A stretch of DNA of 64,000 nt from a virus: positions 1-64,000 of the IMG/VR virus record IMGVR_UViG_3300033149_004116; one strand, 5' to 3'. Under the pieces are notes generated by a model that was given only the letters and a program-made list of their open reading frames with translations, had not been told where the DNA came from and searched no databases. Shown here piece by piece: positions 916 to 64,000 of this stretch (position 1 is the stretch's first letter; each line of letters opens with the position of its first letter). Made by a program: the position numbers and the translations under genes.

Positions 916-1449
916 CTAAATCGAATTGAACCACTTGGTCCACTCCTCCTTTTTCCATTCAAGCCATGAATCTAAATGAGAAATGGTGGCTCTTTTCTCC
1001 CTCTCATAAACCCAAACTGGTTTTGCCTGTTCCACAATCCATAGCCAAAATCCGTTCCAGTCAAATTTTTTCTTCTCCCCCTCCTTATGCTCCCTCAGTT
1101 TATTAAAGGATTTTACCCAATCGTAATGAACTATTGTCTGGGGACGCTTGGATTCTACAATTGAATAGGCTCTATTTAATGAGATATTATGCTTTAAATG
1201 AAGATAGATTGCCGCGAGGAATGGTGAACGATCCATACCTCCAAGACAGTGAAGTAGAATTCTATTTTTAAGCGTAGCAGACACTATCAATTTTCCCGTC
1301 TCTCTTAAAATTCTCATTACGGCATCCCACGTTCCACGATAGAAGGGTCTAACATCAATTACCAAATTAATTTTCTCCTTCCTCAAGAGTTCGGCGTTTT
1401 TTGCATCTACAAGATTCCCAACAGCAACTCTCTCATCTATCCAGTTCAA
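916..1449 (-). CDS. Dual-specificity (Cys-based) protein phosphatase
   Basis: HCLGGMDRS matches the HCxxGxxRS motif. Confidence 0.85.
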   Translation of the reverse strand: MNWIDERVAVGNLVDAKNAELLRKEKINLVIDVRPFYRGTWDAVMRILRETGKLIVSATLKNRILLHCLGGMDRSPFLAAIYLHLKHNISLNRAYSIVESKRPQTIVHYDWVKSFNKLREHKEGEKKKFDWNGFWLWIVEQAKPVWVYEREKRATISHLDSWLEWKKEEWTKWFNSI

Positions 1450-1460
1450 AAAATCACATC

Positions 1461-2144
1461 CTATTTCTTTCTAATAAAAAGACACTCTGTATTTTTTACT
1501 ATTGATTTTTGATCTATCGTAGTAGTTTTCTTTGCCGACCATATCTTGACAAAATCGCGCGGGGCTGAATATTCTGAAATTAATACAGTATTATTTTCAC
1601 TCCAACTCCGCATTATATCCCAGAATTTTTTATGATCGAATGCTGGGAGATGAGAGTATCCCTCGACATTCTTATAGGGCGGATCACAATAAATTAACAT
1701 ATTCTGTGGAAACCAATTAGTATAATCCGTTTTAATAAATATTGCTCCTATAAGTTTTGATGCCTGTCTTAAAGCATTTCTATAAGCTTCATTAGAAAAA
1801 TCTCTTCCCTCCCCTCTAGCATATCCTCCCCATTTTTTGCCCCCATACGAGCAACCATAAGCTACAAATCCTCTCAGAGCTGGAGATACGTTCATCCCAT
1901 TTTTTATTTTATTATAAGTTTCTTCTGAAATATGACTTGGAGGTATCCAACCGTCCCGTAAACCGACCAAAAAAGATATTATGTCTTCATCCAAATCCGA
2001 TCCAATTCTAGGATTTCTCATATTTTCAAATACACTTCCTGCTCCTACAAATGGTTCAAGATATATTTGCTTTGGTTCTCTATACTGCTTTAAAATGTTT
2101 GAGATTCTTTTTCCAAATCTAACTTTTCCGCCCAGATATCTCAT
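1461..2144 (-). CDS. Dam-like (D12 class) DNA adenine methyltransferase
   Basis: YLGGK, EPFVGAGS and YCDPPY motifs. Confidence 0.9.
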   Translation of the reverse strand: MRYLGGKVRFGKRISNILKQYREPKQIYLEPFVGAGSVFENMRNPRIGSDLDEDIISFLVGLRDGWIPPSHISEETYNKIKNGMNVSPALRGFVAYGCSYGGKKWGGYARGEGRDFSNEAYRNALRQASKLIGAIFIKTDYTNWFPQNMLIYCDPPYKNVEGYSHLPAFDHKKFWDIMRSWSENNTVLISEYSAPRDFVKIWSAKKTTTIDQKSIVKNTECLFIRKK

Positions 2145-2748
2145 CTACAACCCCCCAGGAACATATATCACTATACGGACAAGCAACGTGATATTTACAC
2201 GGAACTTCAATTATATCCATTATAACATTACACCAAGGATATTTATCTTTTATTTCGTTCTCTCTAAATTTTTGCTTTATTATAACATCATATAAAACTA
2301 CAGAACCAGCACAAGCAACATTCAAACATCTGACTTCCCCTTGCATAGGCATCATAACTTTTCTAGTAATTTTTAAAATTTCCTTTGGAATGCCCGAATC
2401 TTCCGCTCCTAATATTATTAGAGGTTCTTTGCCCCATACAAAATTTTCCAATGATTCCGCATCATCATCCAATTCTACTGAGACCGCATTTTGTCCTTTA
2501 ATCATTTCCTTTAATTTTTCTATTGTTATAATTTTCAACTTTTGATAGGGTTCTTTTTCCAAATACATTTTCTTCTTGATATCCTTGGGAATGACATAAT
2601 CGTTATCAGGTATTATGAAAAATTTGTCAATTCCAAAGCCTTCAGCAGTTCTAAATAATGCCCAAATATTCCTCCAATATTTCACATTAACCATCGCTAC
2701 AGACGCCATTTTCTCACTTTCTATGTTTTTATTCAACATAATCATCAT
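2119..2748 (-). CDS. SpoU/TrmH-family RNA 2'-O-methyltransferase
   Basis: RNIWALFRTAEGFG, ILGAEDSGI and MPMQGEVRCLNVA SPOUT motifs. Confidence 0.85.
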   Translation of the reverse strand: MMIMLNKNIESEKMASVAMVNVKYWRNIWALFRTAEGFGIDKFFIIPDNDYVIPKDIKKKMYLEKEPYQKLKIITIEKLKEMIKGQNAVSVELDDDAESLENFVWGKEPLIILGAEDSGIPKEILKITRKVMMPMQGEVRCLNVACAGSVVLYDVIIKQKFRENEIKDKYPWCNVIMDIIEVPCKYHVACPYSDICSWGVVDEISGRKS

Positions 2749-3821
2749 AAATTGTTATTCTCCAATTTCGTCTTTCCACGTCAGGCGTGCCTTTATGGTC
2801 TTTCATTGCGTTTGGAATTGGGGCTTCTACGATAACACTACCTTCTCCTTTTTCGTCAATAAATGTTAATAATTCATCCAGACTTTCGATTTCTATTTCG
2901 TTCCGAGATCTCCAATTACTAGCGCGCCTTACATAAAACTTCATTTTATTCATTATCACCTCCTAATTTTTTATCCCTCAATCGGATAATATCGAACTTC
3001 AACCTCGTCTATTCTGACAAGTTGAAAGTTTGGATATTTTGGATACATTCTTTCCCTGACGATTCTTGCCATCGACCTCAATCCTCCAATTCCCCACATT
3101 TCAAATTCCAGTATTTTTCCAGAGTAGATATTTCTCATTTTAATGAGATATTTTTTGAACTCTATCCAACTACATCCAAAATCTGATGGATATTTTGATT
3201 CATACATATCATCACTCTTGTGATTAGATTATAACTTCTAACAAATCCTCCTCGGGCATTATTCCAATCAATTTGTCTCTTTCGTCCGATTTTGGAAGCA
3301 TTTTAACTTGAAGTAAAATTCTACACGATCTCCATCTTTTTCCTCTCACTTTTTTCATCAAAAGTTTAAAGTGTTCCCAAAACAAATCTTTGACATATTT
3401 TTCTGTATCCATACTAATTAAAGCCAATTTTGATAATTCTAATACAGTACCATACGACGATATTTCTTTCTCCAATTTTCTCTTCTCTATTCTCCTTTCC
3501 AGTCTCATCATCGTCGCCTCATCATCTCTTCAATCCAAAGAAGTCTCCTATCGAAATCTTGTAACATTTCAATAATAATTTTCATCTTCTCTTCTACATC
3601 CATCATCTATATAGCACAACTCCGTTATTTATTCCTCGATTTGAAGTATTTCCAAACCTCTTTGGCTGAATAATAAGGTTTATATGGTATCTTATAAATA
3701 TTTGGAAGAACAGGATGCCGAATTGAATTATTAGTTTTTCTATTTGTCAAAACAAAACTAACCGCTCGCATTTTGGGAAAATCTGGAGGAACTTTGCCCT
3801 CGTCTCCCTCTCTTCTCAAAT

Positions 3822-10525: not shown

Positions 10526-10760
10526 CAGAAATTAATATCGGCTTATTTAATATTCTTGCTTTATTTTTATGTCCCTCTATTTTTTCGGCGTTATTGGGGA
10601 ACTTCAATCTCAATATTATCTGTCTCCCTGTTTGTTTACTAAATCTCTCCGCCTCAGTTATTGCCTCCCATCCTCTAATGGGAGGATTTATTCTTCCATT
10701 CTTGAGATATTTTAAGAATTTAGATATTGATGTTACGTGATAAACAATCATTTTCTTCAC
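10497..10760 (-). CDS. Small protein, possible ADP-ribosyltransferase-like fold
   Basis: VYHVTS...NGRINPP N-terminal pattern. Confidence 0.35.
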   Translation of the reverse strand: MKKMIVYHVTSISKFLKYLKNGRINPPIRGWEAITEAERFSKQTGRQIILRLKFPNNAEKIEGHKNKARILNKPILISDVFNGWRGK

Positions 10761-30881: not shown

Positions 30882-30956
30882 TCAATTCTCTTCCAAACAT
30901 TTTAGAATCTTGTAACCCAAAAATTCGATAACATTAACTGTTGTGGCGTTCCCAAG
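30882..30956 (-). pseudogene. Orphan duplicate 3' end (motif X) of the C5 methyltransferase
   Basis: Translates as LGNATTVNVIEFLGYKILKCLEEN*, versus LGNAVSVPVITFLGKQILLSL at the end of 31469..32746. Confidence 0.75.
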
Positions 30957-30957
30957 G

Positions 30958-31488
30958 TTAAGCGAGTTGATATTCAAGTTTTTCCTTGTCAAATCTCACA
31001 ATCCCTTTTCTAATTAAAATGCCTATTATTTTATCTGCGCTTGAATGAATCAGACCGTGTTCTCTATGATTTCTACAAATTATAAGATTATCTTCATTAG
31101 AATTTTTCCTATCAAAGTCTATATGATGTATTGGTTCGCTTCTTCTTGGTGTTCTGCCCAATATTTTCTCTCCAACAAGAATGTGATCGTAAACATATCC
31201 AATTTTCATAGCTCTTGGGTGTTCTGGATTATATGTTGCAGGATAACCGTTTTTTATAATTTTTCCTCCCTTCCAAGAACCATGATTTTTTCCTACTGTC
31301 TTTCTACGAGGGATATTGTATTCTTGCATTCTGAGATGTATAACTCGTTTCGTTGTTCCTAGTTTTTTTGCAATATCCTCCATAGTTAGCCCTTCTGAAT
31401 AAAGCATTTCTATTTGCTCCTTAGAGATAACTATTTTTCTTGGATTTACACCTGATTTAAAATTCTTTTTACTGTGACCCATAATCAC
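30958..31488 (-). CDS. HNH homing endonuclease with N-terminal HTH
   Basis: HTH, WKGG, GYVYDH, IHHIDFDRKNSNEDNL, H..IH. Confidence 0.85.
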   Translation of the reverse strand: MIMGHSKKNFKSGVNPRKIVISKEQIEMLYSEGLTMEDIAKKLGTTKRVIHLRMQEYNIPRRKTVGKNHGSWKGGKIIKNGYPATYNPEHPRAMKIGYVYDHILVGEKILGRTPRRSEPIHHIDFDRKNSNEDNLIICRNHREHGLIHSSADKIIGILIRKGIVRFDKEKLEYQLA

Positions 31489-32746
31489 CGCCGAGTGATA
31501 GCAATATTTGTTTTCCTAAAAATGTTATTACTGGAACACTAACTGCATTTCCGAGCATTTTATAGCGCTGTGTGTCCGAGATTTTGACAATTTCCCCGTT
31601 TTTATTAATTCCCCGCTCAGTCCAGCCATCGGGGAATCCTTGTAGTCGCTCGCACTCGACGGGGGTCAGTCTTCTTATTCTATTATTTTTCAGAAGAGAT
31701 GGTATGTGACCCCCTCCCTTTGCGGTTCTTATTGTAGGAGAGTCTTTTCTAAAAATTCTAACGCCTTCTTTGAATCCTCCGTAAATATTGTGAAGTAGAA
31801 CTCCTTGATCGCCAGCAGAATTTAACGCCCAAGATATCCCCTCTGATTGGATTGGCGTTCTAATATAGCCTTGTTTGTATCTTCCTGTCTGTGCTAACGT
31901 TACGCCTTCCGCGATCAGGTTCTCACTTCCGTCTTTATAATAACGACGACTAATTGCCCTTGCCACGATTCCAACACTTCCAGCACCATCAATCGTTGGG
32001 GAAACTTCGCTCTTCTTGAACCAGTTTCCCCGCCTGTTGGGATGGAGATGGGCAGTCTGAACCGTTATCAAGTTTTCCTCCCTTCCGCTTCCTCCGACTC
32101 TGAGACTTCTTGAAACGCTATCACGTTCATCCCGAAGCCGTGACCCTTCTCCTCGTGTCGCCTTTTGTGTTCCAGTAAAGTTTTCACCAATTTCGGTGAT
32201 AGGAAATATCGGTCGGGAACCCCCTCCTCTAAGATGTCCGATAATGAACACCCTCTCCCTATTCTGGGGGACACCGAACCACTTAGAGTTGAGAACTTGC
32301 CACTCACATCGATAGCCGATACGCCCCAAGACTTCCAAGATAGTTCCGAAGGTCTGCCCCGCGTCGTGACTAAGGATGCCTCGTACATTCTCCAGGAGTA
32401 GAAGCGTGGGTCTTTTAGCCCTCGCAATGCGGGCGATCTCGTAGAAAAGCGTTCCACGAGTGTCCTCAAAGCCCTTCCTTTTCCCGGCAATCGAGAAAGC
32501 CTGGCAAGGGAAGCCAGCACAGAGAAGGTCGTGATCGGGGATGGTTTCGACTTCGACGAGTCTAACGTCGCCTGAATGATGAGTTTCCGCTCCGAATTGT
32601 TTGATATAGACTTGGTTGGCGTACTTGTTGTTGTCAATCGAATACACACATCTGAACCTTTCTGATGCTTTTTCAAGACCTAAACGAAACCCCCCAATAC
32701 CTGAAAATAAATCAATGAATTTTATTTCTCCATTTTGGTCTAACAT
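31469..32746 (-). CDS. dcm: DNA (cytosine-5)-methyltransferase
   Basis: DLFSGIGG, AGFPCQ, ENV, PQNRERV, ECERLQGFPD, GNAV. Confidence 0.95.
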   Translation of the reverse strand: MLDQNGEIKFIDLFSGIGGFRLGLEKASERFRCVYSIDNNKYANQVYIKQFGAETHHSGDVRLVEVETIPDHDLLCAGFPCQAFSIAGKRKGFEDTRGTLFYEIARIARAKRPTLLLLENVRGILSHDAGQTFGTILEVLGRIGYRCEWQVLNSKWFGVPQNRERVFIIGHLRGGGSRPIFPITEIGENFTGTQKATRGEGSRLRDERDSVSRSLRVGGSGREENLITVQTAHLHPNRRGNWFKKSEVSPTIDGAGSVGIVARAISRRYYKDGSENLIAEGVTLAQTGRYKQGYIRTPIQSEGISWALNSAGDQGVLLHNIYGGFKEGVRIFRKDSPTIRTAKGGGHIPSLLKNNRIRRLTPVECERLQGFPDGWTERGINKNGEIVKISDTQRYKMLGNAVSVPVITFLGKQILLSLGGDYGSQ

Positions 32747-62556: not shown

Positions 62557-63756
62557 CTACTCAATACGATCCCTCAAATATTCGTCAAATTGTTTAACAA
62601 TAATGTTTATATCATATACTTCTCTCGCTCTTTTTACTCCTCTCTCGGACATTGCCTTCTTCTCGTCTGGATTTTCTATCAACCATTTCATTTGTTCATA
62701 AGCATGATCAACATCGGCTAATGCTCTATCAACTCCCGCGCTTCCAGTTTCAAACGTTTCAACCTTGACGGGGAGTCCACAAGTCCAATTCCCAAGTATT
62801 TCTTTCGAAGTTGTATATGTCGTTGCAACGTTAGCACAGCCACACGAGAGAGATTCGGTTAAAGTTAGCCCCCACCCCTCCCCGCCAGTTAAGTAACAAA
62901 ATATATCTATACAGTTATAGACCTCCGCTAATGTTTCCTCAGAAACTCCATACATAAAATTTGCCATCATATCGGGCGAGGGGAATATAACATCTTTCCC
63001 TTCCTGCAAGCCAAATCTCTTGACTATAAAAGATAAATCCCATCCCTCCTTGTCAACTTTATCCATCCATAGAAGAAGAACAGTATTTGGATAATCTTTA
63101 TGAAGTTTGACGAATGATTTGATAGTTCTGGGGATTTTCTTTCGAGTTTGGTTTCGATCCACCCGTCCAATTACAATTTTGGATGGGGGTATTCCAAGTT
63201 TCTGTCTCATTTCTCCAATAGTTTGCTCATCCAAAGGTTTAAAGATATTTGTCTTGACTCCATGAGGAATTTGATCGGTTTGTATTCCCTCCGCTTTAAT
63301 CAAGTCCGCGCCGTATTTTGAAATACACACCTTATAATCCACTCTTTTCAATATCTCTTTTATTTGATCTGTTACTGGATATCCATCGATAGGAAACCAA
63401 TACAACCAAGGGACGGGAATCTCTGTTTTATATAAATAAGAGATCATCCAGAAATCAGCAAGCGTTATCAGAACATCTGGATTTTCCTTTGGAAGCCAAT
63501 ATTTGATTGCTCTCTCCCCGAATCTGTCTCCATAAATATTTGGAAGAATCCTATAACCCAAGACATCCTTATGAAAGGAGGCAACCATTTCCTGACCAAA
63601 GGATTGCCATCCTATGTGAGCAACATCATGTCCAACTTTATGAAGATATGTATCCAAATTTCTTAATGCAGTTCCAAAGCCAGATATGGTGTGTGATGAT
63701 TGGTGTCCAAGAAGGGGATTCCTTACTTAGATATCACCCATCGTTAATATCTTCAT
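62557..63756 (-). CDS. GT4 glycosyltransferase split by an intron: exon 1 63756-63733, exon 2 63699-62557, 388 aa after splicing
   Basis: The ATG at 63756 has a GGTGA RBS and overlaps the upstream stop (ATGA). Spliced N-terminus is MKILTMGDSSHTISGFGTALRNL. RNQTRKK and GEGWGLTLTES motifs follow. Confidence 0.88.
63700..63732 (-). other. 33-nt archaeal bulge-helix-bulge (BHB) mRNA intron
   Basis: 5' strand GAUG-GGUG-AU^A-UCUAAG pairs with 3' strand CUUGGA-CACC-AA^U-CAUC. The intron contains an in-frame TAA. Confidence 0.85.
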
Positions 63757-64000
63757 TTTTTCACCTTATCCCTCCTATATTGTCTTCTATTCCAATATCC
63801 CTTTTCTTTTAATTTCATATATTTTTTCCACTTCCTCTCTCCATATATTGTAGCATCATTATATATCCAATCTAGTAGTTTTCTTGCTTCTCTAGTTGCA
63901 TATTTTATTTTATAAACACCTATTTGTTTGTGACACGTTTTCAATCTTAATCCCAACAATTTGTTTATCATCGCTGAAATCCACGTTAAAAATTCTTTAG
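63753..64000 (-). CDS. C-terminal part of a LAGLIDADG-like endonuclease (5' end outside the window)
   Basis: KEFLTWI...YKIKY...ARKLLDWIY...YGERK. The frame stays open to the window end. Confidence 0.6.
   Translation of the reverse strand, partial: KEFLTWISAMINKLLGLRLKTCHKQIGVYKIKYATREARKLLDWIYNDATIYGERKWKKYMKLKEKGYWNRRQYRRDKVKK

Follow-up and report, generated by a model that had tools for sequence, protein, structure and literature searches.

A predicted archaeal-type bulge-helix-bulge mini-intron in a viral glycosyltransferase gene, next to a gene for a homing endonuclease

The stretch of DNA analyzed here (the window) comprises the 64,000 nucleotides (nt) at positions 1 to 64,000 of the IMG/VR virus record IMGVR_UViG_3300033149_004116. 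Near its end, on the minus strand, lies a gene for a GT4 glycosyltransferase (Glycos_transf_1 domain PF00534, E = 1.2e-13) whose reading frame is broken eight codons after its start. We consider that the interrupting 33 nt, at positions 63732..63700, are probably an archaeal-type bulge-helix-bulge (BHB) mini-intron in the GT4 mRNA, judging from the predicted RNA fold and from comparison with homologous genes. The start of the gene is preceded by a GGTGA ribosome-binding site (63761..63765) and four A residues, the 4 nt that separate it from the ATG, and the ATG itself (63756-63754) shares bases with the stop codon of the upstream open reading frame (ORF), a TGA, in the sequence ATGA. Exon 1 (63733..63756) consists of this ATG and seven further codons, encodes MKILTMGD and ends with the codon GAT (63735-63733). 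The putative intron (63700..63732) is in frame, opens with ATC TAA, its second codon being a stop, and closes with CAA. Exon 2 (62557..63699) opens with TCA TCA CAC ACC, is translated as SSHTISGFG…, and encodes SSHTISGFGTALRNL… over 380 codons up to a TAG stop at 62557. Since TAA, the commonest genuine stop in this genome, terminates 38 of the 73 long ORFs, the TAA of the insert is to be regarded as a true stop. The automatic gene call starts at TTG 63657 and gives a protein of 366 amino acids (aa; P0001), versus 388 aa predicted after splicing.

When the minus strand of 63750-63685 was folded with RNAfold, the minimum free energy (MFE) structure was a strict hBHBh' motif (ΔG −17.0 kcal/mol, z −2.7), and 3 of 200 shuffled sequences folded equally well. 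In this structure, all on the minus strand, the exonic helix h pairs GAUG (63739..63742) with CAUC within exon 2 (63695..63698), the central 4-bp helix H pairs GGUG (63735..63738) with CACC within the intron (63702..63705), and the intronic helix h' (63706..63731) is built from UCUAAG/CUUGGA, a bulged U and AAGG/CCUU, capped by the loop AAUCC. Helices h and H each consist of four Watson-Crick pairs, and h' of six pairs (one G-U) plus four. The 3-nt bulges, AUA on the 5′ side (63732..63734) and AAU on the 3′ side (63699..63701), lie on opposite strands, and the centroid structure leaves them unpaired just as the MFE structure does. With its 4-bp central helix, two opposite-strand 3-nt bulges and outer helices, the fold satisfies the definition of the hBHBh' motif, in which h and h' must each have at least two Watson-Crick pairs (PMC7714728). 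DNA comparison with relatives indicated that the four consecutive pairs of h can be formed only by this allele. The splicing endonuclease cuts between bulge nucleotides 2 and 3 (PMC2738675). Applied to both bulges, this rule puts the predicted cuts between 63733 and 63732 and between 63700 and 63699, and excises exactly 63732-63700. As far as the description in PMC5829648 goes, a canonical motif should be accepted by all types of EndA, a broad-specificity EndA being required only for non-canonical introns. Because the motif is strict, it should be a substrate for every EndA type, and the host need not be known for this prediction to be made.

The main evidence lies in the position of the predicted cuts, which fall on the ends of the insert as defined by homology, a coincidence expected with a probability of about 1e-5 by chance. 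Over 20 homologs align collinearly with the predicted spliced product; homologs start MKI[LM]xxGDSxHTISGFG, with nothing interposed, and four are exactly 388 aa long (8 + 380). In all 15 close relatives (proteins 50-68% identical) the DNA reads GAY|TCN or AGY at this site and is free of any insert; one of them, L011, encodes the identical MKILTMGD. The joined exons match 30/30 DNA positions conserved in at least 80% of the relatives, exon 1 matching 11/11 conserved positions, and if the 33-nt deletion is moved along by 1 or 3 nt, the conserved Asp or the invariant Ser gives way to another residue. The predicted exon junction, ATGGGTGAT|TCATCACAC, places GAT|TCA at a codon boundary, and the predicted spliced enzyme contains the peptide ILTMGDSSHTISGFGTALR. 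The GT4 family profile aligns with PDB 3OY2, a solved viral GT-B enzyme, from 3OY2 residue 1 (E = 5.5e-13; MKLIIVGAHSSVPSGYG versus mkilllgdsahtisGfg). Since the alignment begins at residue 1, the eight codons of exon 1 correspond to the first β-strand of the GT-B fold and are needed, and the insert consequently splits the junction between this strand and the Gly-loop. Exon 2 retains 73/73 family-invariant residues and shows no decay. Much of this had been proposed in the initial annotation of the window: direct reading confirmed its layout of the ATG, GGTGA, ATGA overlap and TAA-containing insert to the nucleotide, RNAfold returned exactly the helices and bulges that it had called a textbook BHB, and its claim that the EndA rule would remove 63732-63700 and restore frame and motif agrees with a product collinear with homologs. 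The homolog alignment that it had suggested as a check found 15 intron-less relatives and the 11 extra residues in no homolog, and its warning that gene callers would mis-start such genes was borne out by the 366-aa call from TTG.

Several points weigh against an intron, and the frequency of the motif is one of them. A loose BHB descriptor (h and h' of at least four pairs, G-U allowed, introns of up to 150 nt), run on both strands of the 100,022-bp source genome, gave 206 matches, such matches being common in AT-rich DNA. MFE-consistent strict BHBs occurred at two loci, this insert and 85294..85186, and two Markov-shuffled genomes contained one MFE-consistent motif each, or about one per genome. 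Two genomic loci versus one per shuffle mean that the motif by itself is not beyond chance; thus, a descriptor scan of the genome, which had been among the suggested checks, supported this locus as MFE-consistent but did not make the motif alone significant. In addition, the intron is known from one metagenomic contig only, without covariation, and no exact match to its 26-nt core was found in viral_contigs. Translation of the upstream ORF, which encodes an endonuclease, ends 11 nt 5′ of helix h, and terminating ribosomes could hinder folding. The insertion may be recent, so that an intact exon 2 is no proof of function. Finally, we infer both the archaeal host and the cutting and ligation themselves. 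What the matches of the loose descriptor do provide is a chance rate for any one fixed pair of cut sites, about 8e-6 (206 matches / 200,044 positions / ~136 lengths), and it is at such a fixed pair that the predicted cuts fall.

The ORF upstream of exon 1 encodes an intact 263-aa LAGLIDADG homing endonuclease (genome 63753..64544, minus strand, of which 63753..64000 lies in the window), identified by matches to PF14528 (E = 7.5e-6) and to phrog_4645, annotated as 'endonuclease' (E = 1e-49). Both of its LAGLIDADG-like motifs keep the Asp (LGFIVADG and GVFDGDGG). The ORF begins MKILTLGDSS: its first eight codons are a copy of the GT4 start, followed by two Ser codons, and 36 nt 5′ of its ATG lies a TTTATATA box resembling the GT4 promoters of relatives. 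This first copy of the start (copy 1) matches the conserved DNA of the relatives at 11/11 positions through GAT and at 5/19 thereafter, and it is identical to exon 1 (copy 2) at 20/24 nt. Because copy 1 is conserved through GAT only and the start is duplicated, a single insertion exactly at GAT|TCA is indicated; by this comparison the endonuclease gene, the new ribosome-binding site, copy 2 and the 33 nt read as one 821-nt insertion, at what is the most conserved DNA of the GT4 gene start. The end of the endonuclease ORF lies about 21-24 nt from the intron. Endonuclease and insert are both present in this genome and both absent from the 15 relatives, an association that is weak as it reflects a single event. 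No close relatives of the endonuclease were found in viral_contigs, and its protein homologs are at most 38% identical and align only from about residue 45. Similarity of the intron to the sequence after the GAT of copy 1, or to the whole endonuclease gene, was within that of shuffles (P = 0.38 and 0.81, respectively), indicating that the intron did not arise by duplication of that region. The N-terminal extension of the endonuclease shares a 13-nt match with exon 2, which was not significant.

These observations can be combined into a mechanism. Transcription would proceed from the old GT4 promoter, and the endonuclease would be translated from the old start. The pre-mRNA would fold locally into the canonical hBHBh' motif, host EndA would cut each 3-nt bulge on the 3′ side of its second nucleotide, and a host ligase of the RtcB type would join GAU|UCA. 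Translation of GT4 from the re-created start would then be productive only once the 33 nt had been removed, the spliced mRNA giving a 388-aa enzyme that starts MKILTMGD-SSHTISGFG and the unspliced form a 9-residue peptide only. The intron would also interrupt the target of the endonuclease itself and so prevent self-cutting of the restored junction. On this basis we tentatively suggest that the LAGLIDADG gene, the re-created start and the mini-intron move together as a single cassette whose homing site is GAT|TCN in viral GT4 genes, with the intron blocking self-cleavage and the tRNA-splicing enzymes of the host mending the mRNA, although our confidence in this extension falls short of even. 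The duplicated GT4 start in the adjoining endonuclease gene suggests a selfish-element rather than a regulatory origin, and the intron would accordingly serve a selfish cassette and not regulation. The initial annotation had offered a timing or host-range switch, for which we found no support; its core interpretation, a canonical BHB intron, is the one retained here, but it had overlooked the upstream LAGLIDADG gene and its duplicate start.

A BHB census with an energy filter, covering 473 kb of loci from relatives, pointed to a second GT4 gene with a candidate mini-intron, at 1896-2931 (plus strand) of L047 (Ga0180301_10038050). The element is 28 nt long (1927-1954), folds as an MFE-consistent BHB (z −2.8) and lies at the Gly-loop of a second GT4 family. 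Without splicing, translation from ATG 1896 would meet a TGA after 14 codons. After excision by the same cut rule it would read MISPWRVRCG-I-AAYTGNLSKALAELG (…SPWRVRCG-I-AAYTGNLS…), which is collinear with homologs (…SPWHVRCGIATYTENLS…), for example P0132 (…MVSPWHVRCGIATYTENLSRALAELG). The gene is uninterrupted from residue 1 in five loci, and three proteins (P0126, P0130 and P0131) diverge from the family at the site of the L047 intron, where they look interrupted. No relatives of this second family were found in viral_contigs, either with a single protein or with an alignment. Because L047 shows the same arrangement in another GT4 gene, it gives independent support to a mini-intron in the first.

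We weighed four other explanations of the 33 nt. They could be repair debris that was never removed, leaving GT4 as a fresh pseudogene or as a protein truncated from TTG 63657. We consider this unlikely, even though the insert lies only about 21-24 nt from the gene of an invading endonuclease, other endonuclease insertions in this genome split or duplicate gene ends, the insert occurs in one contig only, and about one MFE-consistent BHB per genome is expected by chance. Debris would have had to form a strict BHB with both cuts at the homology-defined ends (about 1e-5), and there would be no use, in front of a TAA, for an eight-codon restart with its ribosome-binding site and its match at 11/11 conserved positions. 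Exon 2 is without decay, the truncated form would lose β-strand 1 and the Gly-loop (3OY2 being aligned from residue 1), and L047 has the same solution in a different gene. It is very improbable that the 33 nt, or the whole duplicated start, arose from mis-joined strain variants or a sequencing error: the record is a single metagenomic assembly estimated to be 79% complete, but a chimera would not create a novel, in-frame, BHB-shaped hairpin of 33 nt, the two start copies differ at 4/24 positions with a complete endonuclease ORF between them, and similar cassettes occur elsewhere in the contig. Either a scar or an artefact would leave to coincidence the BHB geometry, the precise match of the ends and the conservation of the restart.

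A solution at the ribosome, by bypassing of the T4 gene 60 type or by readthrough or recoding of the TAA, we regard as scarcely credible. The combination of an endonuclease, a short untranslated insert and an early stop resembles T4 mobA/gene 60 (bioRxiv 10.1101/2022.08.31.505936), but with GAU as the take-off codon the in-frame landing codon would be CAA, and there is no matched in-frame pair. Landing on the sole GAC (63707-05) or on either AUC (63700-698 and 63697-95) would not resume in frame, and the Asp codon is not directly followed by the stop. As for readthrough, TAA is the stop of 38/73 long ORFs, and the 11 residues that it would add are absent from all homologs. There is also little to recommend the remaining idea, that the whole 821-nt insert is one intron, a long BHB or a group I/II element, joining copy 1 to exon 2. 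In its favor, GGUG-AU-A is also found at the end of copy 1, which could form pairs with CACC, and LAGLIDADG genes are frequent in archaeal BHB introns as well as in group I introns. The pairing of copy 1, however, gives the central helix only, with 0 pairs in h and 0 in h', and the local mini-BHB is far more stable. No Rfam intron family matched at E ≤ 1 across the endonuclease and intron region; the last base of the intron is A and not the G that group I requires, and 33 nt are too short for a ribozyme. A BHB mini-intron thus remains the reading that we prefer.

The source genome, a single metagenomic contig, carries the gene set of a tailed virus, with portal and tape-measure genes, and encodes an MCM helicase, an anaerobic ribonucleotide reductase and an ATP-dependent DNA ligase. 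The archaeal TATA-box motif TTTA[AT]ATA is found 30-39 nt 5′ of ATGs nine times versus 0.5 expected (~19-fold enrichment). Among cellular genomes, the nearest homologs of the GT4 protein are in metagenome-assembled genomes of Nanoarchaeota and Iainarchaeum (DPANN archaea), the top match (Iainarchaeum) having only 29% identity, which is suggestive and not decisive. From these features, the source is probably a tailed virus of archaea, and its host would probably be a DPANN or other anaerobic lineage. No EndA or RtcB gene was found in the virus record, so that splicing, if any, must draw on host enzymes.

Cassettes that carry a replacement gene end recur in this genome, as two other endonuclease insertions, both of HNH genes, suggest. 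At window positions 30882-31515 (minus strand), an HNH endonuclease gene follows a C5 DNA methylase gene ending …LGNAVSVPVITFLGKQIL…, and 3′ of the HNH gene lies a start-less, diverged second copy of the methylase end (…LGNATTVNVIEFLGYKIL…); from this layout, the HNH gene and the doubled methylase end read as a homing cassette in which the end of the gene is present twice. Outside the window, an RNA ligase gene (PF09414) is split by an HNH ORF (genome 65342-66875, minus strand; L156:2342-3875). Its N part contains KRDG and YGELL and ends …CKDCRYKW, FDIYD and EGVVLK occur in its C part, which begins M-TIKCPKCGS…, and each piece carries half of a zinc ribbon. Neither a convincing long BHB nor an Rfam intron was detected at the RNA ligase/HNH junction. 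Elsewhere in the window, a D12-class adenine methylase ORF (1461-2144, minus strand), with a neighboring ORF at 916-1449 (minus strand), matches positions 1-58 of the 253-position profile only, and this gene may be truncated or interrupted. Among homologs of the main GT4 family, P0023 and P0024 have aberrant or short N-termini (e.g., MDNEIGIPYSSTFATAMRNI…), which could hide nearby inserts. Another GT4 homolog, the 543-aa P0027, has a LAGLIDADG_3 domain (PF14528) within its C-terminal half, probably an intein or other endonuclease invasion of the same gene family.

BHB-like folds were also seen outside coding sequence. The second MFE-consistent locus of the genome (85186-85294, minus strand; L157:3186-3294), outside the window, is a canonical BHB in an intergenic GC-rich island and would release a 109-nt RNA; it has an h of 8-9 bp, a CGCG/CGCG central helix, the bulges AAA and ACA, and UGGG/CCCA. 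In L013, a relative with 50% identity, two tandem BHB-closed GC-rich elements of 81 nt (1264-1344) and 91 nt (1354-1444) lie on the plus strand directly 5′ of the GT4 start, the outer helix of the first rearranging in a longer fold context. A search of this genome for mini-introns by ORF gain gave noisy results, and the most promising candidate, before the MCM gene (10643..10526), was rejected, as its fold was unsupported (z +0.98) and a real upstream ORF overlaps it.

In the literature searched, we found no published case of a BHB intron in a viral protein-coding gene, the nearest remark concerning unproven 12-bp 'introns' in a rudivirus (PMC2738675). Splicing of mRNA by the tRNA pathway is documented for cbf5 of some Crenarchaeota, and reviews up to 2020 name cbf5 alone; a 2020 study of Haloferax added one further mRNA cleaved by the splicing endonuclease (PMC7714728). 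If our reading is correct, archaeal viruses exploit the tRNA-splicing machinery of the host for their own protein-coding genes, and gene callers would systematically truncate such genes. It would also mean that BHB mini-introns spread or persist with homing endonucleases, which bears on the mobility of archaeal introns, and it would offer a simple test system, for which a 70-nt RNA, recombinant EndA of whatever type and a single endonuclease would suffice. Should the cassette proposed above exist, it would parallel T4 mobA/gene 60 in archaea, RNA splicing by host proteins taking the place of ribosome hopping.

The closest known introns are those of cbf5 pre-mRNAs in Desulfurococcales and Sulfolobales (Watanabe 2002; Yokobori 2009, PMC2738675), for which in-frame introns of 33, 36 and 39 bp have been reported. 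As in cbf5, a short intron, here a putative one of the same 33-bp in-frame size, interrupts a protein-coding mRNA at a conserved residue, and the exon borders are predicted from the BHB and from homology; in cbf5, the tRNA-splicing endonuclease cleaves each bulge between its second and third nucleotides. By contrast, the BHBs of cbf5 are mostly relaxed, belong to a vertically inherited cellular housekeeping gene and have been shown by cDNA to be spliced, whereas here the motif is strict, belongs to a viral gene of one genome and adjoins a homing endonuclease gene, and splicing is predicted. A second parallel is T4 mobA with the 50-nt bypass element of gene 60 (Bonocora et al. 2011, as related in bioRxiv 10.1101/2022.08.31.505936). 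There too, an endonuclease gene lies in a conserved gene together with a new downstream start and a short untranslatable insert near that start, and in T4, according to that account, the insert is neutralized after transcription and shields the genome from its own endonuclease. The T4 system, however, relies on ribosome hopping and an HNH enzyme, whereas here the geometry is that of a tRNA intron, the enzyme is of the LAGLIDADG type, the rules of bypassing fail, and only 8-10 codons remain on the upstream side. Collaborative homing is known from F-CphI and the psbA group I intron of cyanophage S-PM2 (Zeng 2009; PMC6083498). In that case, as here, a free-standing endonuclease gene lies beside an ORF-less intron. 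In S-PM2, the intron blocks self-cleavage and the endonuclease mobilizes the intron, but S-PM2 is a virus of bacteria whose intron is a self-splicing ribozyme, whereas protein enzymes of an archaeal host are predicted to act here. Lastly, BHB introns in archaeal rRNA and tRNA genes carry LAGLIDADG genes, e.g., those for I-DmoI and I-PorI, and thus likewise combine BHB splicing with this endonuclease family in archaea. These introns, however, hold the ORF within their loop and reside in genes for stable RNAs, whereas the ORF described here is outside the putative 33-nt intron, is fused to a copy of the exon and has entered a protein-coding gene.

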